The position numbers and the translations under genes are program-made. A stretch of 64,000 nt of DNA from an uncultured Leptospiraceae bacterium (GTDB taxonomy: Bacteria > Spirochaetota > UBA4802 > UB4802). Shown here piece after piece: positions 10,356 to 31,434 of this stretch (the first letter of the stretch is position 1; every line of letters starts with the position of its first letter). The notes beneath the pieces are model-generated. The model did not search any database and was not told where the DNA came from. It saw only the letters and a list, made by a program, of their open reading frames with translations. The stretch lies in contig CAZVRB010000001.1 of assembly GCA_964629365.1 (NCBI GenBank), forward strand, positions 38,693 to 102,692, in the 5' to 3' direction.

Positions 10356-10378
10356 AACCTATAACCCCTGTCTCAACC

Positions 10379-12378: not shown

Positions 12379-12637
12379 TCTTTGAGATCATCATGAACAC
12401 ACCCTTCGTGTAATTGATTAACGTATGCATCATCCATGAGGCAAAGAAGATCAACGCCGCGAAGATAGCCAGTATCTTCGGCACAAATGTCAGTGTCTGT
12501 TCCTGTATAGAGGTGGTGGTCTGAAAAATTGATACGATCAGTCCCACCAGCATACCAATGCCCAGTATGGGGGCAGACACCACCATGGCCACCATCAACG
12601 CTTCACGCATTATTTTAATAACAGTAATATCTGTCAT
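12365..12637 (-). CDS. fliQ: Flagellar export apparatus protein FliQ
   Basis: 90-aa, two-TM protein with a FliQ-like sequence. Confidence 0.85.
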   Translation of the reverse strand: MTDITVIKIMREALMVAMVVSAPILGIGMLVGLIVSIFQTTTSIQEQTLTFVPKILAIFAALIFFASWMMHTLINYTKGVFMMISKIGAG

Positions 12638-12667
12638 AATATCATCCCTGATTCCAAATTATACGAA

Positions 12668-14165: not shown

Positions 14166-14176
14166 CTACGGTATCG

Positions 14177-15247
14177 TTACACCTGTATTTTATTTAATCG
14201 TTCAGCCGGACTCACGATGTCTGTTACACGCACACCGAAGTTTTCATCAATGACAACAACCTCGCCCTTGGCAATAAGCTTTCCATTTACAAGCAGGTCA
14301 ACCGGTTCACCGGCAAGCTTGTCCAGCTCGATAATGGAGCCCTCTCCAAGTCCGAGAATATCTTTTACAAGCTGTCTTGTACGTCCCAGCTCAACGGTTA
14401 GAGTCATCGGGACATCAAGAAGTAAATTTATATTGCCCGATGCTGCAGCTGGCATCCCTTCACCCAGGGGTGGAAATTTCACAGGGCTTATGCCTACCTG
14501 CGGGCCTCTCTGCTGGGAAGGTTCCTGCATCTGCTGCATCTGTTCTCCGCCGCCACCTCCGCCGGCTCCACCTGAAGATCCTGCCAGTTCACGGGCCAGG
14601 CCGAGATCCATGATATGATACAGGCGGGAGTTTACCAGCCCCTCAATATTCAGATTATAGGTAATCCTTACAAGCTCGTTACCCTGCGGCAATGACAGCT
14701 CCTGTCCGTTTCCGGCAACAGAAAGTTCAGGTACCGTTGTATTGATTGAGCGTCCCATGTGTTCACTGATATGTGTTGCGGTGGATGAAAGCATCTGGCT
14801 GACAAACTCCTGCAGAGTACTCTGATGGGCATCGGTCAGTTCGGATGGAGGAGCACCCGAATCGTCCCCCATCATGAGAGACGAAATGACACCGGCATCG
14901 TTCATCGAAAACACGATCAGGTTAGCACCGGTAACACCACCGGTGAAATTCATGGCAATTTGTACGTACTGCTTGTTATGCTCTGATCTCAGAGCATCTG
15001 CTGTCTTCACCTCCACCATGGCATTGGATATGGTAATGTTTTTACCCAGGTATCCGGACAATGCGGGTGAAACCGAAGCCATTGCCCCGCTAAAGAGATC
15101 CGCGATACTATCGCGAGCTACCGGTGAAAGGGGTCCGCTTGAAGGTGTGGCTTCCGCGGATGGAGCCGCACCAGACCCCGACAGCATGTCATCAGCTCCC
15201 TGTAATAGAGCATCTATTTCGTCCTGGGACAGTGATCCGTCACCCAT
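14177..15247 (-). CDS. fliY: Flagellar motor switch protein FliY (CheC-like middle domain plus FliN C-terminal domain)
   Basis: N-terminal CheY-binding peptide (LSQDEIDALLQG), CheC-like middle region, poly-Gly linker, and a C-terminal ~80 aa strongly FliN-like. Confidence 0.75.
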   Translation of the reverse strand: MGDGSLSQDEIDALLQGADDMLSGSGAAPSAEATPSSGPLSPVARDSIADLFSGAMASVSPALSGYLGKNITISNAMVEVKTADALRSEHNKQYVQIAMNFTGGVTGANLIVFSMNDAGVISSLMMGDDSGAPPSELTDAHQSTLQEFVSQMLSSTATHISEHMGRSINTTVPELSVAGNGQELSLPQGNELVRITYNLNIEGLVNSRLYHIMDLGLARELAGSSGGAGGGGGGEQMQQMQEPSQQRGPQVGISPVKFPPLGEGMPAAASGNINLLLDVPMTLTVELGRTRQLVKDILGLGEGSIIELDKLAGEPVDLLVNGKLIAKGEVVVIDENFGVRVTDIVSPAERLNKIQV

Positions 15248-15319
15248 GTAATTCCTCCGAACAATCAGTCTTCAAGGCGTACTCTTCTACCTTATACTGA
15301 CAAGATAATAAAAATAATT

Positions 15320-15856
15320 CTAGTTAACTACAAATTCCCGGAAATAAACCTCCTTAACCTTCCCGGAAATCAATATTGTATTGATATGCGCTTTTATTTC
15401 CTCTGACAGGTTCACCGTGTCTTCGACGGAATCCATATCCTCATATTTCTTTCCACGCAGCACAATATTAATTATATGCTGAATCTGGGGCGTTCTTTGC
15501 ACCAGTTCAGCGTTTAACGCAACATTCTCTTCGTATCCAAGTGAAACCGTAAGCTTGGCAAAATGCGGCTCGGCATCCTTGGTTGTAACCGAAAACGATG
15601 GCAGATCAAAGTGAGAAAGCGGTGCCGGCGGCGGCGCAAGAACAATATCCTGCTCCCGCTCATATCGTTGTTCCTGTACGTATTTTGTTACCAGGTACGA
15701 AATGCCTATCACAATGAATACCAGCAGTATGGCCCCGGCAATATACAGGAGCAGCTTTATAACCCTGGAAGCATCTGACGACGACGGCGCTTTCGCTAAC
15801 CCCTCAGACTCTTCCTCTTCGATATCATCAACATTGACTCGTTCTTCGTCACCCAT
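15320..15856 (-). CDS. fliL: Flagellar basal body-associated protein FliL
   Basis: 178 aa, single N-terminal TM helix, periplasmic FliL-like domain. Position between motB and the switch genes. Confidence 0.75.
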   Translation of the reverse strand: MGDEERVNVDDIEEEESEGLAKAPSSSDASRVIKLLLYIAGAILLVFIVIGISYLVTKYVQEQRYEREQDIVLAPPPAPLSHFDLPSFSVTTKDAEPHFAKLTVSLGYEENVALNAELVQRTPQIQHIINIVLRGKKYEDMDSVEDTVNLSEEIKAHINTILISGKVKEVYFREFVVN

Positions 15857-15994
15857 ACGTTCACCTTTAAATAATAATTACAGCTATTCATCCCTGCTGA
15901 AAATTTATTTTCAAAACCGGCCCACACAGCACACGTGACATCCTGCATCACAAAAAAGCGACAATCGCCCAGGCTATCTCAAGGTAACCTTCAA

Positions 15995-16055
15995 GTCAAT
16001 TAATTTAAGCAATTAATTGACATCATAATATAATAAAATCAAATGTCAATTAATT
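15995..16055. promoter_or_regulatory. Palindromic operator-like element: GTCAATTAATT-taagc-AATTAATTGAC plus a third GTCAATTAATT copy 24 nt away, in the 237-bp motB-fliL spacer
   Basis: Read directly: perfect inverted repeat with 11-bp arms at 15995-16021 and a third direct copy at 16045-16055, followed by AT-rich TATAAT-like sequence. Lies upstream (on the minus strand) of fliL. Confidence 0.45.
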
Positions 16056-16093
16056 TATGATTATGTCACTAAACCGCATTCCTGAAAAAATTC

Positions 16094-16873
16094 CTATCTC
16101 CATTCTTCATCGGGCAGCGGTCTTGAAATTTTTGGCGACGTCTGCCTGGGCATTCCCCTGTCACGAAGTATTACAATATCCACCCTCCGGTTATATGCCC
16201 TCCCCTCGGGTGTATTATTATCATCTATGGGCCTGTGTTCACCAAAAGCCACCGATGAGAGCTGTTTCGGCTTTACATTTTCCTCTTCAACCAGGTACTC
16301 CACAACGTTCACAGAGCGGGCCGACGAGAGTTCCCAGTTATTATCATACCCTTCTTGCAAACCCCTTGGTGCCACCGGCCTGTTGTCTGTATGTCCTTCA
16401 ATTCTGGTATAGTTATCTATGCTTTTTATGATTGCCCCAACCTTGTCCAGTACCGGCTTTACCTCATCTTTCAACTCCGCACTTCCCGGGTCGAAATACG
16501 CGTCCCCGGACAGGGTAATTACCAGTCCCCTTTCATCATCCTGCACCCGCACTTTTTTTGCCTTGATCTCAGGTTTAAATGCTTCAAGTGCCCGCTTCAG
16601 GCTTCTTGCAAGGGCACGTCCCTGCTCACTTGAAGGCAGGTTCTGCATATTCTGGCCCAGTTCTTCCAGGCGACCGGCTGAAAGTGAATATCCACCTTCA
16701 AACATTCCCAATGACCCCCGAAAGGACGAAAGCACCAGGTAAAAGTCTTTTCCACTTATATCGGCAATATTAAACATCAATATGAAAAAAGTCAGAAGGA
16801 GGGTTGTCATATCACCGTACGTGGTCATCCACGCCGGTGAACCCGCCCTTTGTTTCTTTTCCTTTTTCTTCAT
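16094..16873 (-). CDS. motB: Flagellar motor stator protein MotB (OmpA-like C-terminal domain)
   Basis: 259 aa. N-terminal TM helix with a conserved Asp-containing plug region, and a C-terminal OmpA/peptidoglycan-binding domain (TDNRP...NRRVDIVIL). Confidence 0.85.
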   Translation of the reverse strand: MKKKEKKQRAGSPAWMTTYGDMTTLLLTFFILMFNIADISGKDFYLVLSSFRGSLGMFEGGYSLSAGRLEELGQNMQNLPSSEQGRALARSLKRALEAFKPEIKAKKVRVQDDERGLVITLSGDAYFDPGSAELKDEVKPVLDKVGAIIKSIDNYTRIEGHTDNRPVAPRGLQEGYDNNWELSSARSVNVVEYLVEEENVKPKQLSSVAFGEHRPIDDNNTPEGRAYNRRVDIVILRDRGMPRQTSPKISRPLPDEEWR

Positions 16874-17652
16874 TAATCTCCCACCTCGCTGGTGATTGCC
16901 TCCCGTTCTGCAGGCTCAAGGAAAGATATAAGCTTATCTTTAACAATTCTCGGGTTATCACCTGACTGTATGGATAATGTACCCTCGATCATAATAAGTT
17001 TCAAGAGCACCTCTTCATTGCCTCTCAGCTCAAGCTTATTTGCAACCGGCTGCATTACGAGGTTTGCCAGGATGGCACCATAAAGAGTAGTGATAAGAGC
17101 AGCAGACATACCAGGCCCGATAGCCGACTTGTCTTCAATATTTACAAGCATCAGGATAAGCCCTATCAGGGTTCCGATCATACCAAAGGCGGGGGCGAAT
17201 AATGCCCAGTCCTCGAAAAGTTTACGTTGCGCGTCATGACGGGATATTATGTTCTCAAGTTCGGTTTCCATGATTCGCCGTACCAGTTCCGGGTCTGTAC
17301 CATCCACAACCAGCTGTATTCCTTTACGAAGAAAATCATCATCAAGCTCGTCAAGGTCATCTTCAAGTGCGAGAAGACCTTCACGTCTTGCCTTTTCAGA
17401 AAAGGATACAAGGGTGATTATCATTTCATTGGGATTAATGCGGGGTGCAAAAAAAGCAAACCGGGCAACTTTCCACGCTCCCATCACTTTTGCCAGTGGA
17501 TTCGAGATAAGGATGGCCGCAAACGAGCCACCAAGACTAATCATAACAGACGCGGGATCCCAGAACATGAGCGGATTGCCCTTGGCAAACAGAATCCCAA
17601 GAATTATAAATGTAAAACCGGCAATTAACCCACCAATGGTTGCTATATCCAT
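16873..17652 (-). CDS. motA: Flagellar motor stator protein MotA
   Basis: 259 aa, four-TM proton-channel protein with a MotA/TolQ/ExbB-type sequence. Stop overlaps the motB start. Confidence 0.85.
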   Translation of the reverse strand: MDIATIGGLIAGFTFIILGILFAKGNPLMFWDPASVMISLGGSFAAILISNPLAKVMGAWKVARFAFFAPRINPNEMIITLVSFSEKARREGLLALEDDLDELDDDFLRKGIQLVVDGTDPELVRRIMETELENIISRHDAQRKLFEDWALFAPAFGMIGTLIGLILMLVNIEDKSAIGPGMSAALITTLYGAILANLVMQPVANKLELRGNEEVLLKLIMIEGTLSIQSGDNPRIVKDKLISFLEPAEREAITSEVGD

Positions 17653-17947: not shown

Positions 17948-18859
17948 TTATGTTCTCCTTTTTTTTCTTGAAGGCAATAATTCATTTATAACTTCCTTCA
18001 TTGTTCTTTTATTAACAGATCTCTCACTGCATCCAGGCAAACTGCAATCATATACCGGCACGTTGACTTTATAAAACAATTCATCCAGCCATTGCCTGGC
18101 AGCCAGAAACTGATGATCAGTATACCATTGCCTGCTGCGCCTGTTAATCATATAATGACGTTTTCGAAGAATGCGCATATATTCATCTGTTTCAGCAGGG
18201 ATCGTGCGACACTGCCGCAAAGCTGTTTGCTCCGTTGCCATGTTTCCGGCCGTATAGTATCTTTTATCAAATGCCAGATCATTACCCGCCAGAATCAATG
18301 ACTGTATATTACATCCAAGCACCAGGGATACTGCCTGGGTGGTAACGATACTTGCGGTAGCCACGTATCCAAGCTCTTCTCCTGCCTGCTTCCACAATTC
18401 ATTGAAGGGCTCACTGTGCAGCAGCCAGTTATAAAAACTCATACTTCCTTTCCACTGGCGGACGTTAATATTTGACATACCGCTGAATGCCAGAAGATGT
18501 ATCTTTTCGGTGGGAACACCATAGAAGAAAGGTACCGGCGTAGATTCACAGGATATCACAAAGGATGGGGTTATTCCCGCTTTCAATAATGGTTTCAAGG
18601 CCATATCCACGGCAAGTATTACCAGTTCTTTACGCTGATAATACTTTTTCAACTCACTCATGCTGTCTTCAAGGGAAGGACCCGCGCCGCATACAATAAC
18701 ATGTTTACCGGAAAAGCGTTGCACCACCGGCCCAAGTCCACCACACTTGTGAATATAGGGACTATTACGGGTAATATTTCTCTGTATGGCACCCAGCCGC
18801 TCATCGATAAGGGCGCTGTTTATATTATCGTATAATGTTTCAGCATTAACCAACACCAT
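17948..18859 (-). CDS. Motility-associated factor (Maf)-like protein, DUF115/MptE-like domain
   Basis: 303 aa with a GKHVIVCGAGPSL motif, characteristic of the DUF115 (6-hydroxymethylpterin diphosphokinase MptE-like) core found in Maf flagellin-glycosylation proteins. Sits directly upstream of flbD-motAB. Confidence 0.55.
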   Translation of the reverse strand: MVLVNAETLYDNINSALIDERLGAIQRNITRNSPYIHKCGGLGPVVQRFSGKHVIVCGAGPSLEDSMSELKKYYQRKELVILAVDMALKPLLKAGITPSFVISCESTPVPFFYGVPTEKIHLLAFSGMSNINVRQWKGSMSFYNWLLHSEPFNELWKQAGEELGYVATASIVTTQAVSLVLGCNIQSLILAGNDLAFDKRYYTAGNMATEQTALRQCRTIPAETDEYMRILRKRHYMINRRSRQWYTDHQFLAARQWLDELFYKVNVPVYDCSLPGCSERSVNKRTMKEVINELLPSRKKRRT

Positions 18860-18978: not shown

Positions 18979-20799
18979 TTACTTTCGTTTACGCAGGTTA
19001 TACTGCTTACTTCTTGAATCTTTCTGCATCATCTGGTAAGACTCCGAAGCCGCGTTCAGATCCTGTTCCTCTGAGGCCCTTTCCAGCCGTGACTGGTATT
19101 CAACTATATTAAGCACCTGTCGTTTCATCTCCCGTGATTTGTACTGTGAAAGTCCATCACGAACCACCTCGAGGTTTTCCTGGATTTTCGCCTTCGCGTC
19201 ATCAACCCTGCCCTTATCAACCAGGTCCATTGTTTCTTCCATCATGGAAGATGATACGAACATCTTGACGTCCTTCATAACCAGTGGATTCATATTGCGG
19301 GACACCAGTTTACTGTCAGCCGTTGATACAACATTCACCTTTTTACTTGAGCTTATCCTGCCTTCACCCTTTACCGTTTCATCATAGGTATATACCACCG
19401 TTGCAAGCACACCGGTGCTGATAGACTGCCTGGAAGGTATAAGTGCAAGCAGGGCCAGTTTTTTTTCTTCTGAGACCACGTCACCCATTTTAATGACTAC
19501 TCCATCATCTGTATCACTTGCCGTGTATCCGTATACCTTTTCAACCCGTGTACCATGTTCGGGTCGTATCTCAATACTGCAATTCTGTGCCACCACTGCC
19601 AGAAGCCCCTCCAGTTCATTGGAGAAAATTTCGGGAATCTTATCCGCCCTGTCAATGTAGTAATAAAAGGCGCTGCCGTACTCGGCAATACCGGTCATCA
19701 ACTTCTCGTTGAAATACTGCCCAACGCCGAATGTTGATATGGTAATGCCTTCTCCGGATCTCTGCCTGGCAAGCTGCTGTATCTGGCGGGGGTCGGTTAC
19801 CCCCACGTTGGCCAGCCCGTCAGATATCAGCAATACCCTGTTGACCTGGTTGCTTTTTAGTTTTTTCTTTACCTGGTTGCAGCCCTCCAGCATGCCACCG
19901 CTCAGGTTTGTTCCCCCTCCCGGTTCTATGGCATCAATAATTTTGTATATTTTATTCTTATCTGACACAACTTCCGGCTCAAGTGCCACGTCAACAACGT
20001 CATCATAGGTTACGATGGACAAGATGTCAGCTGACTCAAGGTTGCGCACAAGAAATTTCATGGCATCCCTGGCATAGTCCAGTTTTCCTCTGTCAGACAT
20101 GGAGCCGCTTCGATCGAGCACCACAGATATATTCAGCGGCAGTCTCTTCTCTGGACGTTCAGCTTTCCCCGCGAGAAACCCTGTTCTTACGTAAAAACTT
20201 CCGCTGTTGCTTTTGCTGATATACCTGTTCTGCGTCTGCAGCTCCAGCGTTACCAGCCCGGTATTCACTACGGGCCTGTCAGGTTCCACGTCACCGGAAA
20301 AATCTACGTAACTGCCGGTCAACGATTTCACCATCCTTCCGGATATGATATCCACCGCGTCAATGACACCGTCAACATCAGGGCTTCGCTGTTTATCGGC
20401 TGCCATGATCTTTCCGGAATTTACATCGATGAGGCGCACATCAATCCGCAGGTTCTCCCCCGTCCTGGCCACCGAACCGGTAAGCAGCTGCTTCGCTGCC
20501 AGCAGTTTGCCTATTTCGTTGGCATCACCCTCGGTCACCCCCGCGGCGGTGAGTCCTTTCTCTTCCAGTATTTTTTTCACCCGCTCACGCTCAAGCACCA
20601 CCATTTTGCCGCTCTGGGCCAGGTTGGTGGCTATCAGCTCGGGTACCGCAACGCTCAGGTAGGAGAGCGCGGAATCGCCGGTAACGTCCTTAAAGTCAAG
20701 TACCGCGATGGTATATTTTGACTGGGTGTGCCCATTATGGGTATGCACAAAGCTGACAACGGCAAGAAACATCACAGCAAATAATAATGCCCGTTTCAT
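18979..20799 (-). CDS. Secreted protein with CsgG-like N-terminal domain and von Willebrand factor A (VWA) domain
   Basis: 606 aa. Signal peptide. N-terminal YTIAVLDFKDVTGD...VVLERERVKKILEEKGL pattern is like the CsgG/LpoB-type fold. Central VWA domain with MIDAS (DRSGSM...TNLSGG...ISDG). C-terminal coiled coil. Confidence 0.6.
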   Translation of the reverse strand: MKRALLFAVMFLAVVSFVHTHNGHTQSKYTIAVLDFKDVTGDSALSYLSVAVPELIATNLAQSGKMVVLERERVKKILEEKGLTAAGVTEGDANEIGKLLAAKQLLTGSVARTGENLRIDVRLIDVNSGKIMAADKQRSPDVDGVIDAVDIISGRMVKSLTGSYVDFSGDVEPDRPVVNTGLVTLELQTQNRYISKSNSGSFYVRTGFLAGKAERPEKRLPLNISVVLDRSGSMSDRGKLDYARDAMKFLVRNLESADILSIVTYDDVVDVALEPEVVSDKNKIYKIIDAIEPGGGTNLSGGMLEGCNQVKKKLKSNQVNRVLLISDGLANVGVTDPRQIQQLARQRSGEGITISTFGVGQYFNEKLMTGIAEYGSAFYYYIDRADKIPEIFSNELEGLLAVVAQNCSIEIRPEHGTRVEKVYGYTASDTDDGVVIKMGDVVSEEKKLALLALIPSRQSISTGVLATVVYTYDETVKGEGRISSSKKVNVVSTADSKLVSRNMNPLVMKDVKMFVSSSMMEETMDLVDKGRVDDAKAKIQENLEVVRDGLSQYKSREMKRQVLNIVEYQSRLERASEEQDLNAASESYQMMQKDSRSKQYNLRKRK

Positions 20800-21031: not shown

Positions 21032-23947
21032 TTAACGCATCAAACCCCGCGACTGCCTGCCTTCGGCCGCCCCCTCATACATGCCGGCAACACCGAAGTA
21101 GACCTGCGTTTCCCCGTACCGGTCAAAGCCGTGGGCAACACCCGCGAAACCGCTTATGTCATAGCCAAAGCCCAGGGTGATGCGTGTATGCAGTTCACCT
21201 CCCACGGAGGTTCTGAAATCAGCAAGGCCGCTGCTGCCTTTCCACACGTTGCCGTATTCCACGAATGGGACCGCCCAGACATCACGCAGCATCACCGGCA
21301 GTGTGCCGTATCCCAGGTCAAGCTGCAGCAGGGGCAGGCGGTATTCCAGGGCACCAACCACAAGCCTGTCCCCGTAGAACATGTCCGCCGCGTATCCCCG
21401 CATACCGAAGCGGTCCTCGCCGGTTTCCGCGGCGCCGGTCTTCCCCTTCTCGAACCGTCCCAGGTTGTAGGGGTCAAGGTAGCCAGGATTGTTGAACGAA
21501 GCCCCTCCCCGTCCCCGCAGCATGATGACGTTGTTGCGCCATATACCCGGAAGGTACCATGCAAGTTCACCCCGCACCTTCCCGTAATTCACGTCCGACC
21601 CCACACTGTCTGTATACCAGTCACCGATAACCATGAGCGTAACCCCGTCCTCCTGGCTTACCGAGTAGGAATACGAGGTAGCGCTGCTGAAGGAGTATCC
21701 CCCGTGAAAACCTGCCAGCACGTCCCGGTATTCGAAAACCCCCGCACCGCTGTAGTAGATGTCAGTCCAGGTCACCTCCCGGCTGTATGACAGGCTTAGC
21801 AGGTGCTGGTTGTAGAACTGCACGTACGGGATTGATATCCCTGCTTCAATGTTTCGTTCAAGTTCTCGTTTCAGGTTCTCTGAATGTTCTTCCTCCCACG
21901 GAAAGGTGTCCTCCCCGTAGAAAAGGGAGTTGTCACTGTAGAGTACCGTTATATCAGGATAGAGCCCGGCATAGGTATACTGCAGGGACACGTCCGCCCG
22001 CTTCTGCGCTACCGACGCTGCCCCGTACACCGTGTAGAAATGCCGGTAGAGGGTGTCCGCCCCCATGGTATAGAACCCGTACCAGCTGTCATAGCCGTCG
22101 GGGTATATTTCCTCCGAGTAAAGCACCGGCAGCCAGGCGGGGTTCACCAGCGAGTACAGGGGATTGTATCCGCCGGACCTGCCGCCGAACCTGTCCTGGT
22201 CATCGTATAACGCGGCTGTTCTGAAATACCCGTCGGCCGGTTCTGATGGTATTGTTCCCACCACTTCACCGTCGGCCGGTTGGGGAATTATGCCCACGTT
22301 GAACCCGTCCTTACCGTATGAAGCAACGGCGATACGTGACCCGTCCGGGGACACGTCCGGCCAGAACACCCCGCCAATTACGCTGGTGAGCTTTTTCACC
22401 TGCCCGGAGTTCAGATCAATATTGTAAAGATTGTACACCCCGTCACGGTCAGACACAAAAACCACCTTCCAGGCATCCGGGTACCAGTCAGCATGCATGC
22501 AGCTGTACGTCCCCCCTGTCAGCTGGCGTATGGTGTTATTCTGCATAGTATAAAGGAAGATATGACTGTATCCATTTGCGTCCCTGGCCGAGAACACTAT
22601 ACTCTTCCCGCCGGGAGATACCCTCACCCCCGAGATCTGCAGGGGCGTTTTCTCAATGAGCACCCGCGAAACCGAGTAGTCCTTTTCAAGCACCAGCAGG
22701 CTGTAGCGGTCGTCCTCAATCCGCACGCATGCCATTGTGCCGTCTGGGAAAGGGTCTACAGACTGGACCCGCAGGCCGCAGGTTTTGCGGTCATAGCCGT
22801 GGTCATAGGTGAACACGTCGTTATACATGAAGTAGGTTTTATAGTATTCCAGGTCGGCCAGCAGCACCCTGTCTTCACCCGTCACGCTGAGCCATGAGGG
22901 CATGTGTATGCTGGCAAGCTTCTCTTTTTCACCCGTATTCAGCGAAACGCGCATCAGTGCGGGAATATTGTAATTGGTCATCCTGGTGTAGTAGAGACTT
23001 TGTCCATCACTGCTGAAGCGGGGCATGGTGGTGAAATACCCGCTATGGGTCAGCACCCTGGGCTCCGTCACCCCCTTCTCCCTGATCTGGTCTGCCTGCC
23101 TGGTGTAACGCCGCACCGCCTCCTGCTGCCACTGCTCCCACAGGGCATAAAACGACCTGCCGTACACGTCACGGGCGTTTTTCTGCACCAGCCAGGGAAG
23201 CACGTTGTCGGCGTTCTCCCTGAACACCTCTTCGAACCGTCCATCCTTCTGGGTCTCCTGCAGGTAGTCCACGAAAAGTCCCCCGTACAGGTAGGGCACC
23301 ATCCCCGAAGGCCATTCCCTGGGGAAATACGAGGCCAGGTTTATTGATTTCAGGGAGTTCTCTTCAATTTCAGTCCGCATCACCATGTCAGTATAATTGC
23401 TGTTCACCCTCCCGTATGGATACTCAAGGGATTCACGGTATACCGGGTACCCTTCAAGATTCCACATGGGAAGGAACATGTTGGGGAAACACACCCGGCC
23501 CAGGGTATATCTTGTGGCTTCGGGAATACCGTCAATAATATCAAGGTTGAACACGTGGCTGTACTCGTGAATGAACACCAGCTCCATCCAGTCATCATAA
23601 TTACCAATAGAACTGTCAGCTTCGGGGCGGACGATAAAAAGCTGCACCCGGTTATAAGGCACCGGTATGGTAAACCCGTTGGGCTGATCGGTGTTGTCAA
23701 CCAGCACCACGTCGGTTCGCCAGTACGGCTCCCACCCTGTGGCCTGCACCAGCTGCCGGTGCACCTTCTCTGCGATGGGTACAAGCCGCCGTGCATGGTC
23801 TTCAAGCCCCTGGTGATAGTGTATCCAGAAATGCTCTGTCCTGATAGACTTCCAGTCAAGTTCAGGATGGAACATGAATGCCGCATCACCAATGCAGGGT
23901 ATAATTAATATTATAAGGAAGAATATAGAATGCAGAATCTTTTTCAT
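21032..23947 (-). CDS. Large secreted protein: HEXXH motif region, TolB-like PD40 beta-propeller repeats, and C-terminal Omp85/BamA-like beta-barrel-like domain
   Basis: 971 aa. Signal peptide. IHEYSH (HEXXH) near residue 130. PD40-like repeats (FSSDGQSLYY, VSPGGKSIVFS, VSPDGSRIAVASY). C-terminal ~350 aa is Y/G/S-rich with alternating amphipathic pattern and an RGY...G...ALEYRLPL segment resembling the Omp85 barrel signature. High GC. Confidence 0.5.
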   Translation of the reverse strand: MKKILHSIFFLIILIIPCIGDAAFMFHPELDWKSIRTEHFWIHYHQGLEDHARRLVPIAEKVHRQLVQATGWEPYWRTDVVLVDNTDQPNGFTIPVPYNRVQLFIVRPEADSSIGNYDDWMELVFIHEYSHVFNLDIIDGIPEATRYTLGRVCFPNMFLPMWNLEGYPVYRESLEYPYGRVNSNYTDMVMRTEIEENSLKSINLASYFPREWPSGMVPYLYGGLFVDYLQETQKDGRFEEVFRENADNVLPWLVQKNARDVYGRSFYALWEQWQQEAVRRYTRQADQIREKGVTEPRVLTHSGYFTTMPRFSSDGQSLYYTRMTNYNIPALMRVSLNTGEKEKLASIHMPSWLSVTGEDRVLLADLEYYKTYFMYNDVFTYDHGYDRKTCGLRVQSVDPFPDGTMACVRIEDDRYSLLVLEKDYSVSRVLIEKTPLQISGVRVSPGGKSIVFSARDANGYSHIFLYTMQNNTIRQLTGGTYSCMHADWYPDAWKVVFVSDRDGVYNLYNIDLNSGQVKKLTSVIGGVFWPDVSPDGSRIAVASYGKDGFNVGIIPQPADGEVVGTIPSEPADGYFRTAALYDDQDRFGGRSGGYNPLYSLVNPAWLPVLYSEEIYPDGYDSWYGFYTMGADTLYRHFYTVYGAASVAQKRADVSLQYTYAGLYPDITVLYSDNSLFYGEDTFPWEEEHSENLKRELERNIEAGISIPYVQFYNQHLLSLSYSREVTWTDIYYSGAGVFEYRDVLAGFHGGYSFSSATSYSYSVSQEDGVTLMVIGDWYTDSVGSDVNYGKVRGELAWYLPGIWRNNVIMLRGRGGASFNNPGYLDPYNLGRFEKGKTGAAETGEDRFGMRGYAADMFYGDRLVVGALEYRLPLLQLDLGYGTLPVMLRDVWAVPFVEYGNVWKGSSGLADFRTSVGGELHTRITLGFGYDISGFAGVAHGFDRYGETQVYFGVAGMYEGAAEGRQSRGLMR

Positions 23948-24029: not shown

Positions 24030-26135
24030 TCACTTCACCCCCAGCCTGTCAGTAAGGATCAGCCGTCCCCACTGCGCCGCCAGGTGACCATTCCCCTTCC
24101 GTAGAATCACAATAATCCCCTTCTCATCCTTTCCACCCAGAAACATGCCGTATCCGAGGGGGAGGTTGGTACCGTCGATTACGGTTGAAGTTTTCCCCCA
24201 CAGGCCTGCATCAACAGGCTGCTGCTGCATGTCCCTGGTCAACCCAACGGGGTCCTTCCAGTTACACTCCGGCCCTGCAGGATGTATCGGCAGCGCCGCG
24301 GTACCTTCGGTGAAGGTGGCGGCAAGTGCCCTCCGTATCCTCACAAGACCTTCCCCGTCAATCTCTTCACGAAGCCGGTTCACCCCGTCATTACTGGTAG
24401 ACACCCCGCTCACCAGCATGGCAATTTTCACCAGGTCACCCACCCGCATGCTCACCTGGAAATCAAGCCCGGCGCATCGTTTTGACCACTCAGCCCTGCC
24501 ATTTACCGCCGAGAATGCATGCAGAAGCCCAAGCCTCTGGCACAACGTCGCGTAAAAACTGTTAAAATCATTAAACGAAATCTCACCCGCAAGTGAAGCA
24601 AAATACATGTTGCACGAATGTGACAGTGCAGGGAACAGGCTCATCCTCCCATGCCCTTCCGGTTTCCAGCAGCCGTCGCTTAGAATGGATTGGGCATCTC
24701 CCCGTGACCCGCAGGTAAAATGATATCCATCCACAAGGTCGGGCCGATGGCTCACAAGGTACAGCCCCATGATGATCTTCCACAATGATCCCGGCGGCAC
24801 CACCCGCTCTGCCATGGCCGGATGGCTCTGCCCCGTTACCTGCCCGCTGCGCATATCAAATGTCATATAGGACAGGTTGGGCGACCCCGCCATTTCCCCT
24901 TCTACCGCTTTCAGGGAAAGTTCCCTGTAATAATGTGTGAGTATCTCGTAACGCGAATAACCCATCGCAGCCAACGCAAGCGCCCCGTGCTGGCACAGGC
25001 CTACGTTATGCCCAAGCCCCCTGCCGCTAAAACGCAAAGCGGGGCCGTCATCCCTGTTCACCATCTCAAGGCGGTAATTATTGCTCTTAAGAAAATTCCA
25101 GCCCATTACCCGGTTAATCTTCAGCCTGAAAGTTTCCGGCGCCAGGGTCAACGAGCCCGAATCCCCTTTCATCATAACAACCGGCACCCCCGAATCATAT
25201 TCAACAGCAGGGGGGGGACGTGAAAGCTTCTCATCATCCAGGATGTCCCGCACCTGTACCGGTGAAAGCATTCGTGTCCACCCGTTATCACCTGCATGAC
25301 AGAGCACCATTCCTGTTCTGTAAAGAATATCCTTCACCGGCGGGAAACCTCTCTCCTCCGCTCCAAACACACCCATGTCCATGGTATGCCCCCCGCAACG
25401 AGAATGAAAGAGCAGGTGGCCGGCCAGGTTCTGGTGATCTATATACCATCTATCATCGTGCAGGAGGGATGGCTTCCCCGTCCTCCCCCTGTAGACCTGG
25501 CAATGGGTAAGGTCGCAGAACCGGTAAGGATGTCCGGGGTGATTATCCTGTATGTACCGGCACCGGGCCAGGATCACGTGGGCAAGGGCTGCCAACGCTT
25601 CACGGTGTATGGCAGGCCTGTTGCCGTATTCGGCACGGGCACTGTCAGATGCATATCGCGTTGGGTCTTCATAAACCACGGTAACAGGATCTTCATTCTT
25701 ATCAAGGGACAGGTATAGCGGAAGGGGATAGGTTCGCTTTACACCTGCCAGGTTCAGGGCAAAGGACTGCCCACCGGGCGGGGCTTCGATTTCGCATTCA
25801 ACCGGCAGGCCAACCGGCACATCATCCATGGTCACATGCCAGCCACGGTGAAAGCTCAGCTGCAGCCGCTGCACAGGAATGTTACTGCCTGCCCCCTCCC
25901 CGTACAGCCTGGTTCCAGCTGGGAAGGTGCACACGATCTGCCCCCTGCCCTCTTCGCGCATTTGGCGAAAGTGCTTCGAGAGCACCTGTATACCCACCCT
26001 TTCTTCGCCGGCAAAAAGCATTGCCGGCGAAAGAACACACAGCAGAAGAAGTATCCGGGTAATGCTGCTGGTATTATTCCTTCCTGTCAATTTCGATGGA
26101 ACCCGGCGGCGCCCATCCCTGTATGGTTGGTTCAT
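24030..26135 (-). CDS. Fusion protein: SpoIID/LytB domain plus penicillin-binding transpeptidase-like domain
   Basis: 701 aa. Signal peptide. CDLTHCQVYRG and GRGLGHNVGLCQHGALALA motifs are SpoIID/LytB hallmarks. C-terminal half has SXXK (PPGSLWK), SXN (SHSCN) and KTG-like (GKTST) motifs. The listed ATG start overlaps the A2M stop by 62 nt (an in-frame TTG would give a 17-nt overlap). Confidence 0.6.
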   Translation of the reverse strand: MNQPYRDGRRRVPSKLTGRNNTSSITRILLLLCVLSPAMLFAGEERVGIQVLSKHFRQMREEGRGQIVCTFPAGTRLYGEGAGSNIPVQRLQLSFHRGWHVTMDDVPVGLPVECEIEAPPGGQSFALNLAGVKRTYPLPLYLSLDKNEDPVTVVYEDPTRYASDSARAEYGNRPAIHREALAALAHVILARCRYIQDNHPGHPYRFCDLTHCQVYRGRTGKPSLLHDDRWYIDHQNLAGHLLFHSRCGGHTMDMGVFGAEERGFPPVKDILYRTGMVLCHAGDNGWTRMLSPVQVRDILDDEKLSRPPPAVEYDSGVPVVMMKGDSGSLTLAPETFRLKINRVMGWNFLKSNNYRLEMVNRDDGPALRFSGRGLGHNVGLCQHGALALAAMGYSRYEILTHYYRELSLKAVEGEMAGSPNLSYMTFDMRSGQVTGQSHPAMAERVVPPGSLWKIIMGLYLVSHRPDLVDGYHFTCGSRGDAQSILSDGCWKPEGHGRMSLFPALSHSCNMYFASLAGEISFNDFNSFYATLCQRLGLLHAFSAVNGRAEWSKRCAGLDFQVSMRVGDLVKIAMLVSGVSTSNDGVNRLREEIDGEGLVRIRRALAATFTEGTAALPIHPAGPECNWKDPVGLTRDMQQQPVDAGLWGKTSTVIDGTNLPLGYGMFLGGKDEKGIIVILRKGNGHLAAQWGRLILTDRLGVK

Positions 26136-29100
26136 ACATGCACTCCATCCTGGATGGTTTCACACTGAAAGTGCCCGGCAGCTCTGCCCGGATTATATAG
26201 GCAATCTCGTAGTATTTCCCCTTCTGAAGGCTGTTGAAGAAAAACACCATCCTGTTATCCCAGCGTTCGGCATTCACGTACGGCTGATAGCCGTCGTAGG
26301 CGTTTTTATCCACCACCTCGAAACCAGCCGGAAGGTAATCTTCAAGCACCAGGTATTCGAAATCATCACTTGCCACGAACCTCACCTTTACCAGCAGTTC
26401 ATCTCCTATCTTCAATTCTCTCTTATCATCAATATTCTGCGGTACAAGGTACTCGTTATGATGAATGTCCTTCACCCTGGTTACGTATGAGAATGAACGG
26501 GCAATCTGTATTCCATTGGACAGGGCATTCACGCTTCGTTTTTCGGATTTAAAGAGTGACAGCACACCGGCATCTTTGAATTTCAGGGTACCGTTGATCA
26601 CCACCTCGTAACTGAGATCCCTGCCGGCATCCCCCGCGGCTTCCACCGTAAATTCGGGAACCGTTCTTCCCCCTTCAAGGGGCAGTGTCCTGGTAAAGTT
26701 CTTCATGTCAATCTCACCGCTCAGATCATAGGTAAACTCGGTCAGATGCTTTCCGTCAAGGGTGAAGGCTACCTTTCCGCTGGTTTTCGGTGCGGCACCG
26801 ATACTGTCAATATAGTCACCCAGGGCAAATATTACCGTGGCGGTTTCCTTGGTAGAGTTCCATGCGCCACCCTTCCCTCTTTTGGTCAACGAACGCACCG
26901 CCCTTGACACCAGTGAAGTAGTGTCACCCGTTTCAACGAGAGCTGAAAGCACGTGTGCAGTAATCTCAGCACGTCCTCCCGGCCATCCCCATTGCTGGGT
27001 TCCCACGCTGGGCCAGTATATCCCCCGTCCGTCAAGTTCCTGTTTCTCTTTTAACGCGGCCAGGAACTCCTTTAAATCCTTTTTGAGATCCTGTTTTCTT
27101 TCATTTTTCAGTTTTTTTATGCCATCAGCCTTTACCAGGGCACGCACAATATATGCCAACTGGTAGGGGTTCATTGCAAGCTTGTCTGTGCAATACTCGT
27201 AGGCCTTTTGGTCCCATTTTCCATGAAGGGCGTACACGTACAGCAGGTAGGCCATCGCGTCATGTGACACCTGCCGGTATTTCAGCATCCTGGCAACGGC
27301 AGATACACCCTTATCGATAGCATTTTTACTTATGGCATACCCGTTCTTCTGCGCCAGCATAAAACCACTCAGAACGTAACCGGTTACAAAACCATTACCC
27401 CGGTCGCCATACCACCATCCCCACGAACCGTCACTGTTCTGCAGCTGCTGCAGCCGTGATATCCCCGAATCAACCTTGGCATGCAGTTCCTTTGTGGATT
27501 TCTCTGAAAGCAATGCCCCGTACCCCTGCCCCTGGGCAAGCCTGTACACCGCCATTGCCGGCAGAAACCTGTTTATGGTCTGCTCAATACAGCCATAGGG
27601 ATATTGCATAAGAAATTCTGTGGCCCGAAGCATCTGTATTACCGGTGAAGGGTTCACCTGTATGGTAACCGACTCGGGTACGAAATCAAAATCAGTGCTG
27701 TCTTTCAACGGCTGTATAACAATTTTGCTGTTATTTGCCATGTCTCCCGTTCCGTACAGCTTGTAGCGCACCCCCCGCCGCTCTACGGGCACATGCAGGC
27801 GCAGTGCGTCGCTGGCTGAGGCGTCCGCAATTGCGGTATATTCCATGGTGAGCTTTTGTGTATCATCCGGAATAATGGTTGTATAATATTCCCTGGAAGA
27901 CCCGAATCCAGGCAGGCTGATCTTCACCGGGTTATCGGCCACAGCCTTCTTCCCGTTGATCTTCATGGTGGTGGTAACCTCTTTCAAACCCCGTTTAGTA
28001 TTGCTGTTGACAATACCGATGATACCCATGGTATCACCTTCAACGGCAAACCGCGGTCGTCCGATTCGGGCGATCAGGTCTTGTGTTACCTGGAATTCTG
28101 ATTTATCTTCTCCAACCCGTCCCTCACGATCATGCCCCCTGGCGGTAAGCCTCCAGACGGTAAGGTTGTCGGGTAACGTGAAGGTGACCGAAGCCTTTCC
28201 GGCGGCATCGGTTCGTATCTTTCCCTTCCAGAAGGCAGTATCTTCAAACTTCTCCCTGATCTTTACCTTCCCCTCTTTTGCGGCACCGGCAAGAATGTGT
28301 ATGGGATAGGAGTAGCTTGTCAACACCCAGTTTGATATCTTTGTATAGAAGAAATTTTGCATTTTCGGCGTGTGATCGGGCCGGATCTGGTATATAGCCT
28401 CGTCAACAGCGGCAAGGGACAGGTCGGCTTCAAGGGGGTTCCCTTTCTTATCTGTTACCTTGATATGTACCGTTGCCTTTTCTCCAGGTTTGTATACCTT
28501 TTTATCATTTTTCATCTCGATGGAAAGACCGGTTTCTGCAACCGGAAGTTCAATATCAACCCTGCTGGTATACAGGGCCCGTTTTCTCTGCATGGTTGCG
28601 GTAAGGTAAAAGTTTGGTGCGTATGCAGGTTTCACATCAAATGTTACCGGTGTGATATTCCCTTTCATTTGTACCACCTTTGAGTGATACACGTCACGCC
28701 CCTCAAGTGTCAGGCACACGTAGGAGTCGGTGAACCTGCTTTTCACCAGGCAGGTGATCTTACCGGGTTCCTTCAAGCTTGTCTTGTCTACCGTAAGTTC
28801 AAGGTTCTTCAACTTTGACTTTATCTCTCCACCCTGCCTGCTGTATATCCAGATGATCCTGTTGGCGTTGATCTTGTTGTTATAACGGTCGGTACTTTCG
28901 GCAACCAGGTCAAACTCGCCGTAGTATGAAAACTTTTTGGGCAGTTCTACTGTCGCCCGGCCTTTTTTGTCAGTAGTGATCTTCTTTGAAAACAGCGGAC
29001 GCTTTTCATGCACATATACACGCTGCAGGGGTTTCCACACGTAGCGGTAAAGATCCAGGTTTACCCCGGCACGCATGGGATCACCCGTATGGGACAGGGT

Positions 29101-31434
29101 TTGAATCTCAATTTTCTTTTTCTCATTATCCGCGTAAAAATTCTGATCAGGGTTTATCTTGATATAATATTCCCCCCGGCCAACCTTTACCGAGTTGCTC
29201 GAAGTGATGCTGATATTAGACTTGTCCATCACGGTTGCCTCGAGGGTGATCTTACGATCATAGGGGTAGTTACCACTGTCAAAGCGCAATACGGCCACCC
29301 CTTCATCGTTTAGATATTTCTCACCTTCAAGGCGTATACGGTTGTATGATTCACGTGAAGGATAATCCTCTTCCCACCAGTAGGTGGTATCGGTATCACG
29401 CATCCTGGTTTCATAAAAGCGATACCGCACCAGCCCGTTTTTCAGCGGGGCACCAAAAAAGTATTTCGTCTCAACCTTAAATTCAACGGTATCACCGTTG
29501 GTGAAGTAGGGTTTTGAAGGGGTGATGTCTATTTTAAATTCCGGTTTTCGGTATTGTTCCATGTAGTAACGCCCGGCGGCATACAGGTTTTCCTTCGTGG
29601 GACCAACCCGTATATCATATTCACCAAGCCGTGCATCTGCTGCCATGACGATCTTACCATGCCAGGTTCCCCACTGGTCAAGGGTGATCTGGCCCTCTTC
29701 CACCGTACTGTTAAAATCCCTGTTGATTATCCTGTAATGCAGCTTCTGCCCGTTGAGCGGCATAAATCTACGCTTTCTTTCCTTGCCAACCACCTTGTAA
29801 AACACCGTGTCACCCGCCCTGTATACCGGCCTGTCAGTATAGATGAAGTACTTGTTCTTCTCACGGTCGAAGGCTGATGGCGATCCGGTGCTGCACAGGG
29901 CGTAGCTGCCGTCTTCTCCTATAACCAGCACAGTATAATGTTTCCTGGATTTCATCCTGTAGGTAAATACACCGTTGCTGTCAGTCTGCCCTTTTTTTAA
30001 TATCTTTACAGGCAGGTCTTCTATCCGTTTGGGGGGCTTGTAGGGATGTGTAGAATACCTGTACTGTTTCTTCTCGGGTGTTGAGTCAAATACCACCACC
30101 GATGCACCCTTGATGGGTTTGTTTTCTGCAAGATGGGTCACATAGGTAAACATGGAATATTGCGATCGCTTTGCCACCACCCCCACCGATGTAACAGAGA
30201 AGAACTTACGGCTGATCATTTTACCTGCACCCTCAACTTCAATGCAATAGCCCCCGGTTGGAAGCTGGTCTTTCAATTCCAGTGACTGGTAGCGCCATTC
30301 GTAGGGTTTGAAATTGTGAATAGGTTCACTCCATTCTGTGAACACCTTGAATTTCTCTTTTGCCGGATTGATGGTATCCGGATCAACGTGCCCCTGCAAA
30401 AATGTATTCAGCGGCACCTGGTATACCCGCACTTTTACCGATTCAAGGCGAAAGGTGCGCAGGTTGAATGAAAGTTTATTACCCGGCACAAAGGTATACC
30501 TGTATGAGTAGACGCTTAATGCAGGATCTTTCGGGGTCACATCGTAATCAAAATCTTTCTTTCTCTCACCTTCTGTTATCTTGAAGGAAGAGGTTTCCAT
30601 TGTATCAAATCCCCGGTGATGAATTCGCAGCTTGTAATTACCTGGTTTCAGGTCTTCAAGTACATAAGTTCCATCATGGAAAGTACTGGCCGAGTAGGTT
30701 ACCCTGCCAACCGCCTGAACGTCCACGTTTATGGCAGGGGCGTTTAGTCCCTTGATGCTGATTGTACCGGATATGGAAGCCGGTTCATATACTACCATGG
30801 GAAGGGTGAAGGTTTCACCATTCTTAATATACTTGATGCGGGCAGTTTCGGTAATATATCCCGGTTTACTGAAGGTTGCCATGTATCTGCCCGCGGGAAG
30901 CTTGTTAAAGCTGTAACTGCCATCATCACCTGTTGACTGTATGAAAGGCTTGTTACCCTGTCCATAACCGGAAGACGTCTGCTGCAGTTTTACCTGCACC
31001 CCTTGTACCGGTTTACCGTCACCTCCCCGCACTACACCCGTGAGAATGCCTTCTCTCTGTAAGTATATAGTTCTCTTTCCGGCTTCCACTTTTTCGGTAG
31101 TCTTATATGTGACGTATCCGTCTGCTACAACTTCAATTATATATCGTACCTGCGGTATAAAGTTTTCAATTTTGAAATACCCACCGTTATCTGTTTTTTC
31201 AAGGTAGTAGCCCACTCCCATCTGTGCGTTCTTCAGCTCCACCGTGGCCCCTGCAACTGCATCTTTGTTCTGTGCATCCAGAACCCGTCCTTTCACCACA
31301 TATTCTTTTTGCAGTTTTTTATCGTCAGGACCGGTATACACAACTGTTCCGTCCTCCATGTGCTTTTTCCCGGTGGTAGTACACCCCGTAATCACCAGCA
31401 GCATGAGAGCTATACACACAATAACCTTCTTCAT
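26074..31434 (-). CDS. Bacterial alpha-2-macroglobulin family lipoprotein with intact thioester motif
   Basis: 1786 aa. Lipoprotein signal (LLVITGC). Multiple MG/CarbopepD_reg-like domains. Thioester GCIEQ (QYPYGCIEQTINRF). Helical TED-like region and C-terminal receptor-binding-like domain. Confidence 0.85.
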   Translation of the reverse strand: MKKVIVCIALMLLVITGCTTTGKKHMEDGTVVYTGPDDKKLQKEYVVKGRVLDAQNKDAVAGATVELKNAQMGVGYYLEKTDNGGYFKIENFIPQVRYIIEVVADGYVTYKTTEKVEAGKRTIYLQREGILTGVVRGGDGKPVQGVQVKLQQTSSGYGQGNKPFIQSTGDDGSYSFNKLPAGRYMATFSKPGYITETARIKYIKNGETFTLPMVVYEPASISGTISIKGLNAPAINVDVQAVGRVTYSASTFHDGTYVLEDLKPGNYKLRIHHRGFDTMETSSFKITEGERKKDFDYDVTPKDPALSVYSYRYTFVPGNKLSFNLRTFRLESVKVRVYQVPLNTFLQGHVDPDTINPAKEKFKVFTEWSEPIHNFKPYEWRYQSLELKDQLPTGGYCIEVEGAGKMISRKFFSVTSVGVVAKRSQYSMFTYVTHLAENKPIKGASVVVFDSTPEKKQYRYSTHPYKPPKRIEDLPVKILKKGQTDSNGVFTYRMKSRKHYTVLVIGEDGSYALCSTGSPSAFDREKNKYFIYTDRPVYRAGDTVFYKVVGKERKRRFMPLNGQKLHYRIINRDFNSTVEEGQITLDQWGTWHGKIVMAADARLGEYDIRVGPTKENLYAAGRYYMEQYRKPEFKIDITPSKPYFTNGDTVEFKVETKYFFGAPLKNGLVRYRFYETRMRDTDTTYWWEEDYPSRESYNRIRLEGEKYLNDEGVAVLRFDSGNYPYDRKITLEATVMDKSNISITSSNSVKVGRGEYYIKINPDQNFYADNEKKKIEIQTLSHTGDPMRAGVNLDLYRYVWKPLQRVYVHEKRPLFSKKITTDKKGRATVELPKKFSYYGEFDLVAESTDRYNNKINANRIIWIYSRQGGEIKSKLKNLELTVDKTSLKEPGKITCLVKSRFTDSYVCLTLEGRDVYHSKVVQMKGNITPVTFDVKPAYAPNFYLTATMQRKRALYTSRVDIELPVAETGLSIEMKNDKKVYKPGEKATVHIKVTDKKGNPLEADLSLAAVDEAIYQIRPDHTPKMQNFFYTKISNWVLTSYSYPIHILAGAAKEGKVKIREKFEDTAFWKGKIRTDAAGKASVTFTLPDNLTVWRLTARGHDREGRVGEDKSEFQVTQDLIARIGRPRFAVEGDTMGIIGIVNSNTKRGLKEVTTTMKINGKKAVADNPVKISLPGFGSSREYYTTIIPDDTQKLTMEYTAIADASASDALRLHVPVERRGVRYKLYGTGDMANNSKIVIQPLKDSTDFDFVPESVTIQVNPSPVIQMLRATEFLMQYPYGCIEQTINRFLPAMAVYRLAQGQGYGALLSEKSTKELHAKVDSGISRLQQLQNSDGSWGWWYGDRGNGFVTGYVLSGFMLAQKNGYAISKNAIDKGVSAVARMLKYRQVSHDAMAYLLYVYALHGKWDQKAYEYCTDKLAMNPYQLAYIVRALVKADGIKKLKNERKQDLKKDLKEFLAALKEKQELDGRGIYWPSVGTQQWGWPGGRAEITAHVLSALVETGDTTSLVSRAVRSLTKRGKGGAWNSTKETATVIFALGDYIDSIGAAPKTSGKVAFTLDGKHLTEFTYDLSGEIDMKNFTRTLPLEGGRTVPEFTVEAAGDAGRDLSYEVVINGTLKFKDAGVLSLFKSEKRSVNALSNGIQIARSFSYVTRVKDIHHNEYLVPQNIDDKRELKIGDELLVKVRFVASDDFEYLVLEDYLPAGFEVVDKNAYDGYQPYVNAERWDNRMVFFFNSLQKGKYYEIAYIIRAELPGTFSVKPSRMECMYEPTIQGWAPPGSIEIDRKE

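Follow-up and report, generated by a model that had tools for sequence, protein, structure and literature searches.

Homology searches and structure prediction on a 64,000-nucleotide stretch of DNA from an uncultured Leptospiraceae bacterium (assembly GCA_964629365.1, contig CAZVRB010000001.1, positions 38,693 to 102,692 of the forward strand; hereafter the window) revealed a gene for a 971-residue protein that is, according to its model, an Omp85 barrel fused to a zinc peptidase domain and a TolB-like propeller, which stand in place of POTRA domains. By its architecture, which is therefore not new, the gene is an ordinary member of a published and very widespread Omp85 subfamily. Across phyla, the catalytic set of the zinc peptidase (zincin) domain, and not the propeller alone, forms the invariant core of the family, which points to proteolysis as the selected activity. 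A suspected functional link to a neighboring gene for an alpha-2-macroglobulin (A2M) can be dropped. The domain identities, the conservation of catalytic and Omp85 motifs, the absence of POTRA domains, the breadth of the family and the lack of conserved A2M linkage are all supported at the level of prediction and homology.

A predicted three-domain protein

The gene is an uninterrupted open reading frame (ORF) of 971 codons on the minus strand, running from an ATG at 23947 to a stop codon at 21032-21034. An earlier reading made from the letters of the window (the sequence-only reading) had given exactly these outer coordinates and this length. The plus strand of the same interval is broken by many stop codons, whereas the minus strand is open throughout, with a ribosome-binding site of the GGTGA type a few bases 5' of the start.

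The AlphaFold2 model of the full-length protein, built from an alignment of 43 sequences, had a mean predicted local distance difference test score (pLDDT) of 88.7 and a predicted template modeling score (pTM) of 0.87. From the N-terminus it comprised a signal peptide, an α/β domain, a propeller, a linker, a barrel and a disordered tail (boundaries in Table 1). The sequence-only reading had proposed a HEXXH motif, a TolB-like propeller and an Omp85-type barrel lacking POTRA domains, and each of these structural elements was borne out.

The N-terminal domain resembles gluzincins

The sequence motifs and the model of the N-terminal domain identify it as a putative clan-MA gluzincin with an M1-like fold that is not itself a member of family M1. 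Its HEXXH motif, which the sequence-only reading had singled out, is HEYSH and is invariant across the family alignments; about 0.024 such motifs would be expected by chance in a protein of the same composition. When modeled alone, the domain had a pLDDT of 85, and nearly all of the 50 matches listed by Foldseek were proteins of the gluzincin/M1 fold. These included the M1 proteins 3cia, 4fgm, IRAP, ERAP1, LTA4H, APN and the tricorn-interacting factor F3 (1z1w), as well as the M61 enzyme 7xyo and the M9 collagenases 4ar1 and 8jt1; the exceptions were the metallopeptidase AM0627 (7sci) and the TFIID chain 7edx_B. The concern that HEXXH might occur here in a non-peptidase fold was thus not borne out by the predicted structure.

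Alignment of the domain profile to the M1 aminopeptidase 3cia placed W-N-L-E165-G on W-L-N-E-G and V-P-Y219-L-Y-G on V-P-Y-V-K-G. By reference to M1 enzymology, we take E165 to be the third zinc ligand and Y219 to be the catalytic tyrosine. Residues N90, H127, E128, H131, E165, G166, Y219 and G222 were invariant in alignments of 43, 24 and 68 sequences, the last being the set used for all conservation counts out of 68 below and consisting of full-length genome-derived relatives from Spirochaetota, Nitrospirota, Myxococcota, Acidobacteriota, Planctomycetota and other groups. The sequence-only reading had left the class of zincin to a search for the third ligand; with E165 downstream of HEYSH in 68 of 68 sequences, the predicted class is gluzincin. 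Both the sequence (HEXXH with a downstream Glu) and the modeled thermolysin-like fold are those by which gluzincins are recognized, and zinc binding is predicted.

Membership of M1 proper was ruled out by three observations: the GXMEN motif, which makes M1 enzymes aminopeptidases, was absent from all 43 aligned relatives; the spacing from HEXXH to the Glu is 33 residues here versus 18 in M1; and PF01433 had no match in the query. The missing GXMEN motif makes an aminopeptidase less likely than an active zinc enzyme of the endo- or oligopeptidase kind, which is the most probable reading. No Pfam-A or NCBIfam model covered the N-terminal domain in the query, and PF13485 (Peptidase_MA_2) gave a weak match in four of the 43 relatives.

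The C-terminal region is modeled as an Omp85 barrel

The 350 C-terminal residues, which the sequence-only reading had put forward as a putative Omp85 barrel, were modeled as a 16-stranded barrel like those of TamA and BamA, with pLDDT mostly above 85. The top Foldseek matches of the full model in the PDB were TamA (8us3, 8us2, 4c00) and BamA (7bnq, 4c4v, 5or1), with E-values from 4e-10 to 1e-9 and interleaved with TolB. AlphaFold2 and Foldseek thus favor a barrel; neither the lack of a barrel nor a soluble β-sandwich was seen in the model. A dyad-hydrophobicity test for transmembrane strands was not discriminating (1.98 for the barrel versus 2.09 for the propeller). The Pfam barrel family PF01103 was matched by 21 of the 43 relatives at E≤0.01, and a profile of the C-terminal domain found the solved Omp85 protein 9ccg_A (E 2e-8) and BamA 8xnb (E 0.017). 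These alignments to solved Omp85 proteins run through the motifs LRGY, (L/I)E(Y/N)R and FAD(A/Y)G-x-W and the terminal YF-x-x-G-x-x-F.

The longest inter-strand loop, of 42 residues, lies between strands 11 and 12 and bears the RGY motif, a position that corresponds to that of loop L6 in the structures of BamA, TamA and FhaC. The segment RGY...EYRLPL on which the sequence-only reading had based its barrel assignment is indeed present, as MRGY at 849-852 and EYRLPL at 868-873. MRGY aligned to LRGY of 9ccg and LRGL of BamA 8xnb, and was well conserved in the relatives (R850 in 64/68, G851 in 66/68, Y or F at 852 in 65/68); the EYRxP motif likewise aligned to solved Omp85 proteins and was conserved in relatives. 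Further on, F895-V-E897-Y-G899 aligned to the FADAG/FADYG of solved Omp85 proteins, with Glu replacing Asp in the query (F895 in 63/68, E or D at 897 in 65/68, G899 in 67/68). In BamA structures, the F-x-D-x-G motif is the partner of L6.

The protein ends in ...GLMR, and the sequence-only reading was correct that a terminal aromatic residue is missing; the doubt that this had cast on the barrel is probably accounted for by the 17-residue tail that follows strand 16. Among the 68 relatives, 17 stop no more than three residues after strand 16; in most of these the last residue is F, L, Y or W, chiefly F or L. Tails of 16-19 residues were the commonest class; they are largely of the Spirochaetota type and follow an internal ...QVYF... 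strand, and the β-signal is probably internal in the tail-bearing clade. In most Spirochaetota members (P0003-P0053) strand 16 is followed by a conserved tail of the approximate form EGA-x-KN-x-YKW-L-DY-[LF], from which that of the window protein and of a relative of 74% identity, EGAAEGRQSRGLMR, diverges.

A six-bladed propeller between enzyme and barrel

The PD40/TolB-like propeller noted in the sequence-only reading was found both in sequence searches and in the predicted structure. Its 24 strands form six four-stranded blades in the AlphaFold2 model, and the query matched the Pfam families PD40 (E 7e-12) and DPPIV_N (E 1e-8) as well as the TolB model TIGR02800 (E 2.5e-23), in which the propeller part only was aligned. 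PDB chains of TolB were matched at E 4e-13 with the single sequence and at 1e-41 with the family profile, and Foldseek returned TolB 2ivz/4jml at E 5e-10. The family profile also matched the propellers of S9 peptidases, tricorn protease and DPP-IV. Identity as a TolB equivalog was rejected: the score of 82.7 bits falls far under the TIGR02800 cut-off of 343.15, and the N-terminal domain of TolB was unmatched.

Export signal and interdomain linker

A hydrophobic N-terminus ending in an A-x-A-like site was found in all 43 relatives, consistent with cleavage by signal peptidase I (SPase-I). We considered and rejected a lipoprotein reading of the sequence IIPC, since the 74% relative alone has a counterpart of Cys18, and SPase-I-type sites occur in the remaining relatives.

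The absence of POTRA domains, as the sequence-only reading had it, was borne out: POTRA Pfam families had no match in the query or in the 43 relatives, and the linker of the AlphaFold2 model contained no β-α-α-β-β unit. BamA, TamA and TpsB proper require one or more POTRA domains. Because none was found, the protein is not classed with them, although some NCBI records use the BamA/TamA name.

Table 1. Coordinates of the gene and of its predicted features in the window.
Feature	Residues	Window positions	Strand	Basis
Whole coding sequence, WD40-like Omp85 family protein	971 residues plus stop	21032..23947	minus	ORF list and translation
Predicted signal peptide, MKKILHSIFFLIILIIPCIGDAA, SPase-I type	1-23	23879..23947	minus	AlphaFold2 helix at 2-15, low-pLDDT segment 14-23
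Putative gluzincin (clan MA, M1-like) catalytic domain	24-295	23063..23878	minus	Domain model, Foldseek, weak hidden Markov model (HMM) match
HEYSH zinc-binding/catalytic motif (predicted)	127-131	23555..23569	minus	Translation, conservation
E165 of WNLEG (putative third zinc ligand) through Y219 of VPYLYG (putative catalytic tyrosine)	165-219	23291..23455	minus	Translation, HMM alignment to 3cia
Six-bladed TolB/PD40-type β-propeller, 24 strands	297-565	22253..23059	minus	DSSP of model, PD40/DPPIV_N/TIGR02800 matches
Linker, no POTRA fold	566-605	22133..22252	minus	Short elements only (helix 572-575, strand 591-593, helix 597-600); lower pLDDT
Predicted 16-stranded Omp85-type β-barrel	606-954	21086..22132	minus	DSSP, Foldseek, C-terminal domain profile
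Loop L6, 42 residues; R850-G851-Y852 at 21392-21400	819-860	21368..21493	minus	Loop lengths, translation
Disordered C-terminal tail, after strand 16 (TQVYFGVA)	955-971	21035..21085	minus	pLDDT <50 for 957-971

Distribution of the family

A first protein search returned about 70 full-length relatives of 950-1040 residues, mostly from metagenome-assembled genomes (MAGs) of Spirochaetota. Scanning genomes with the alignment of the N-terminal domain extended this to 188 species-level genomes, the best 80 of which include Spirochaetota/Leptospirales MAGs, Turneriella, Acidobacteriota, Myxococcota, Gemmatimonadota, Nitrospirota, Planctomycetota and Margulisiibacteriota. Nearly all complete copies were 950-1040 residues long and alignable end to end. 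An exhaustive profile search with the N-terminal domain among 1.84 billion representatives of clusters defined at 50% identity yielded 7,449 clusters at E≤1e-3, including 1,977 at E≤1e-30, and in most of them the domain is N-terminal in proteins of about 940-1030 residues. The sequence-only reading had considered the combination of domains unusual; it is instead that of the published WD40-like Omp85 subfamily (PMC4104836), which these searches show to be very widespread. A contig of 'Spirochaetes bacterium isolate M55B154' aligns collinearly with the window at about 94% nucleotide identity.

Public databases name proteins of this family TolB, PD40, DPP-IV N-terminal or BamA/TamA, names that are explained by the lack of a Pfam or NCBIfam model covering the N-terminal domain of the query. 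Present in 7,449 clusters and yet unmatched by Pfam-A and NCBIfam in the window protein, the zincin domain is an annotation gap.

Neighboring genes

Directly upstream of the 971-codon gene, and likewise on the minus strand, lie a gene for a 701-residue protein (24030-26135), separated from it by an 82-bp gap, and the A2M gene (26074-31434), the called ORFs of the last two sharing 62 nt. The 82-bp gap was searched for promoter-like and terminator-like sites, and none was found. The A2M protein is a lipoprotein with the lipobox LVITGC, an intact thioester motif, CIEQ, at residue 1282 and three N-terminal CarboxypepD_reg domains. The usual partner of bacterial A2M is PBP1c (PbpC). The 701-residue protein, in which only weak SpoIID/LytB and PBP2-type transpeptidase fragments were recognized, does not resemble PBP1c, and the two genes may represent a variant A2M-partner pairing.

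The sequence-only reading had described the 971-codon gene as encoded with this A2M pair. The genes are adjacent in the window, but the arrangement is confined to the closest relatives: tblastn found A2M and partner beside the family gene in 4 of 86 loci, belonging to three genomes that are all close relatives, and both the 74%-identical relative and a 94% relative (L007) retain the gene order. Relatives at 27-48% identity have HDOD and glyQ or unrelated genes as neighbors. Shared orientation with A2M is uninformative because more than 30 kb of genes are co-directional, all non-nested ORFs of at least 150 codons from 341 to 32814 being on the minus strand. The adjacency is thus a local accident, and a functional link with A2M is largely refuted.

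In an unbiased clustering of neighbors, the commonest was a co-oriented HDOD gene directly downstream of the family gene, present in 32 of 79 non-redundant loci. The genes after it correspond in size and position to the glyQ and DHH/DHHA1-family genes of locus L004. The HDOD gene lies about 122 bp downstream in L001, L004, L009, L014 and other loci, and could be either an operon partner or a matter of synteny within a clade. The window lacks it. A MptE-like gene lies directly downstream of the family gene in eight related Spirochaetota loci. The window has a MptE-like (Maf-type) gene at 17948-18859 (minus strand), and between it and the 971-codon gene lies a gene for a 606-residue protein (18979-20799, minus strand) with a CsgG/TolB_N/FlgO-like N-terminal domain fused to VWA. 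This gene looks like a lineage-specific insertion because the MptE-like gene directly follows the family gene in the eight loci. The 74% relative has an extra CNNM/CorC gene and a 1875-codon ORF in the region downstream of the family gene.

Other minus-strand features of the window are a flagellar motor/export operon downstream of the 971-codon gene, at about 8250-17652, encoding MotA, MotB, FliL, a FliM/N-like protein, FliO, FliR, FlhB and FlhA, and VanW-like and AMMECR1-like genes (31466-32814) directly upstream of A2M, in the same order as in the 74% relative. Two further minus-strand ORFs, of 736 codons (42584-44794) and 258 codons (38767-39543), had no Pfam match at E≤1e-4; they are located between the gene for a GAF-GGDEF protein and an F-type ATP synthase operon.

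Discussion

We propose, with a probability of roughly 60%, that the protein is an outer-membrane-anchored periplasmic metallopeptidase with propeller-restricted access, including a possible role in quality control of outer membrane proteins (OMPs). After Sec-dependent export and cleavage of the signal peptide, the 16-stranded barrel would be inserted into the outer membrane. Because an Omp85 barrel starts and ends on the periplasmic side, the N-terminal 540 or so residues would be periplasmic and lie under the barrel. There, the M1-like gluzincin domain would be packed against the six-bladed propeller, with zinc bound by HEYSH and E165, E128 acting as the general base and Y219 being the transition-state tyrosine. 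By analogy with tricorn, DPP-IV and prolyl oligopeptidases, the propeller would probably restrict or select access to the active site, admitting unfolded or short peptides. The barrel would serve at least as a membrane anchor and might also dock unfolded β-strand clients, in which case the protein could be a protease for quality control or processing of the envelope or of OMPs, by analogy with BepA at BAM. Catalytic activity, gating by the propeller, the class of substrate and the periplasmic location are all features that we infer for the protein.

Several observations weigh against this proposal. The Foldseek matches of the N-terminal domain are moderate fold matches, with E-values of 2e-4 to 8e-3 and a query-normalized TM-score (TMq) of about 0.5, and the domain profile matched 3cia weakly (E 0.13), with the HEXXH helix outside the alignment. 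On the query, PF01103 matched residues 767-926 at E 4.4e-5, its 23.6 bits falling just short of the gathering score of 24.0. The conserved neighbors (HDOD, glyQ and the DHH-family gene) offer no functional hint, and our literature searches found no functional, structural or experimental study of the WD40/aminopeptidase Omp85 subfamily.

Part of the same evidence could be read as that of a BAM-type assembly paralogue, a working Omp85 insertase in which the propeller is a fused BamB/TolB-like scaffold that recruits partners and the zincin is secondary or a chaperone. The propeller as a BamB-like scaffold was suggested by Heinz and Lithgow (PMC4104836), the Omp85 motifs (L6 RGY and FxE/DxG) are conserved, and the shortness of strand 16 resembles that in BamA-type seams. 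We nevertheless consider such a paralogue unlikely. The strictest conservation across phyla is that of the zincin catalytic set (68/68), and we therefore argue that proteolysis, not pure scaffolding, is the selected activity; there are no POTRA domains to receive substrates; and the propeller is of the TolB/PD40 type with six blades, compared to the eight of BamB (PMC11358297). Rather improbable, too, is a type-V-like self-export in which the barrel moves the zincin and propeller to the cell surface, making a surface protease for nutrition or interaction. PlpD provides the precedent of an Omp85 barrel proposed to export its own N-terminal enzyme domain (PMC4104836), and the flexible linker at 566-605, with its lower pLDDT, would suit such a route. 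However, patatin-like members commonly keep POTRA domains (PMC4104836) whereas none occurs in the window family, the cargo to be passed through a barrel with a conserved L6 plug motif would amount to about 540 residues and include a closed six-bladed propeller, and the pTM of 0.87 suggests fixed packing of the soluble module on the periplasmic face.

The resemblance of the propeller, greatest to TolB, raises the thought of a Tol-Pal-like tether linking outer membrane and wall, in which the propeller binds Pal or peptidoglycan-associated partners while the zincin trims peptides of the cell wall or of lipoproteins. The TolB propeller is the Pal-binding domain, and the TolB/Pal complexes 2hqs and 4r40 were among the matches. 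PD40 propellers are, however, also standard gating domains of peptidases, the query matches DPPIV_N, the S9 family and tricorn, and no tol or pal genes occur among the conserved neighbors, so that we regard a tether as highly unlikely. Least probable of all is a functional module with the adjacent A2M pair, that is, an envelope protease/anti-protease operon: the shared strand, the 82-bp gap devoid of promoter- or terminator-like sites and the retention of the arrangement in the 74% and 94% relatives are what such an operon would show, but they are outweighed by its occurrence in 4 of 86 loci from three closely related genomes, by the different neighbors at 27-48% identity and by the co-direction of more than 30 kb of window genes.

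The proposed membrane-anchored peptidase could be taken one step further, to a one-polypeptide equivalent of BamA, BamB and BepA for quality control or processing of OMPs, in many non-model diderm phyla. Its POTRA-less barrel would capture clients that are stalled or bear a β-signal, through strand pairing at the seam between strands 1 and 16, and feed them to the propeller-gated zincin. This extension is speculative and we hold it to be unlikely; operon membership alongside a thioester A2M, acquired in this Spirochaetota lineage for the control of envelope proteases, would be a still weaker addition to it. Were the fused protease shown to receive its substrates from the barrel, spirochaetes, Nitrospirota, Myxococcota and other phyla would have a form of envelope quality control that is new.

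Comparison with known systems

The Omp85/TpsB superfamily was split by Heinz and Lithgow (2014, Front Microbiol 5:370, PMC4104836) into ten subfamilies, one of them the POTRA-less 'WD40-like' subfamily, listed in their domain table as PF01103 with PF07676 repeats. Table S3 of that paper gives BamA/TamA barrels (4k3b, 4c00) as templates, TolB (2ivz, 2w8b) as the best WD40 hit and, in a column headed 'best aminopeptidase hit', 1z5h (F3), 4kxd and 4fgm, for exemplars including H1XQ58, D0MEQ5, D5CSQ4, J1SNQ0 and B3QRX6. In a 2024 paper (PMC11358297) this is summed up as 'divergent WD40 and peptidase domains' in Omp85 subfamilies. A cluster look-up and a search with a diverse family profile returned none of the exemplar accessions. 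The window protein is placed in the WD40-like subfamily by architecture and structural templates: it has the same three-part architecture without POTRA domains and the same templates, TamA/BamA, TolB, 4fgm and F3 (as 1z1w here and 1z5h in the paper). It comes from the Spirochaetota clade with a tail of 16-19 residues after strand 16. Whereas the 2014 paper stressed the propeller as a BamB-like scaffold, our comparison identified the zincin catalytic residues as the invariant core.

With BamA and TamA the protein shares the predicted 16-stranded barrel (Foldseek E about 4e-10), the RG(Y/F) of L6 between strands 11 and 12 and the FxD/ExG motif; it differs in having an enzyme and a propeller instead of POTRA domains, and the N-terminal half of its barrel is too divergent for PF01103, which matches at 767-926 only. 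With TolB it shares the six-bladed PD40 propeller, which in the window protein is fused into a membrane protein and has no match to the TolB N-terminal domain beside it. The thermolysin-like catalytic fold is common to the predicted N-terminal domain, to the M1 gluzincins (3cia, LTA4H, aminopeptidase N and F3) and to M61 and M9 enzymes. M1 and the window domain also have in common HEXXH, the Glu of W-x-x-E-G and the Tyr of V-P-Y-x-x-G, but GXMEN and the N- and C-terminal domains of M1 are missing from the window protein, and the HEXXH-Glu spacing (33 versus 18) is different.

A functional parallel is BepA of E. coli, described in PMC13478230, PMC8423444 and PMC13655028 as a periplasmic zinc metalloprotease that acts at an Omp85 machine, BAM, in quality control of OMPs. 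BepA belongs to family M48, has TPR repeats and is a soluble protein in its own right, whereas the window protease would be M1-like, accompanied by a propeller and covalently fused to its own barrel; the likeness is an analogy, and as to function it is speculation. Also related in construction are PlpD, a patatin-like Omp85 protein of type Vd, and the 'Metallo' Omp85 subfamily, in which an N-terminal enzyme domain likewise replaces the full POTRA array (PMC4104836). PlpD, however, carries a lipase, and many patatin-like members retain POTRA domains, while the 'Metallo' subfamily carries PF00149, a domain family distinct from the HEXXH zincin of the window protein.

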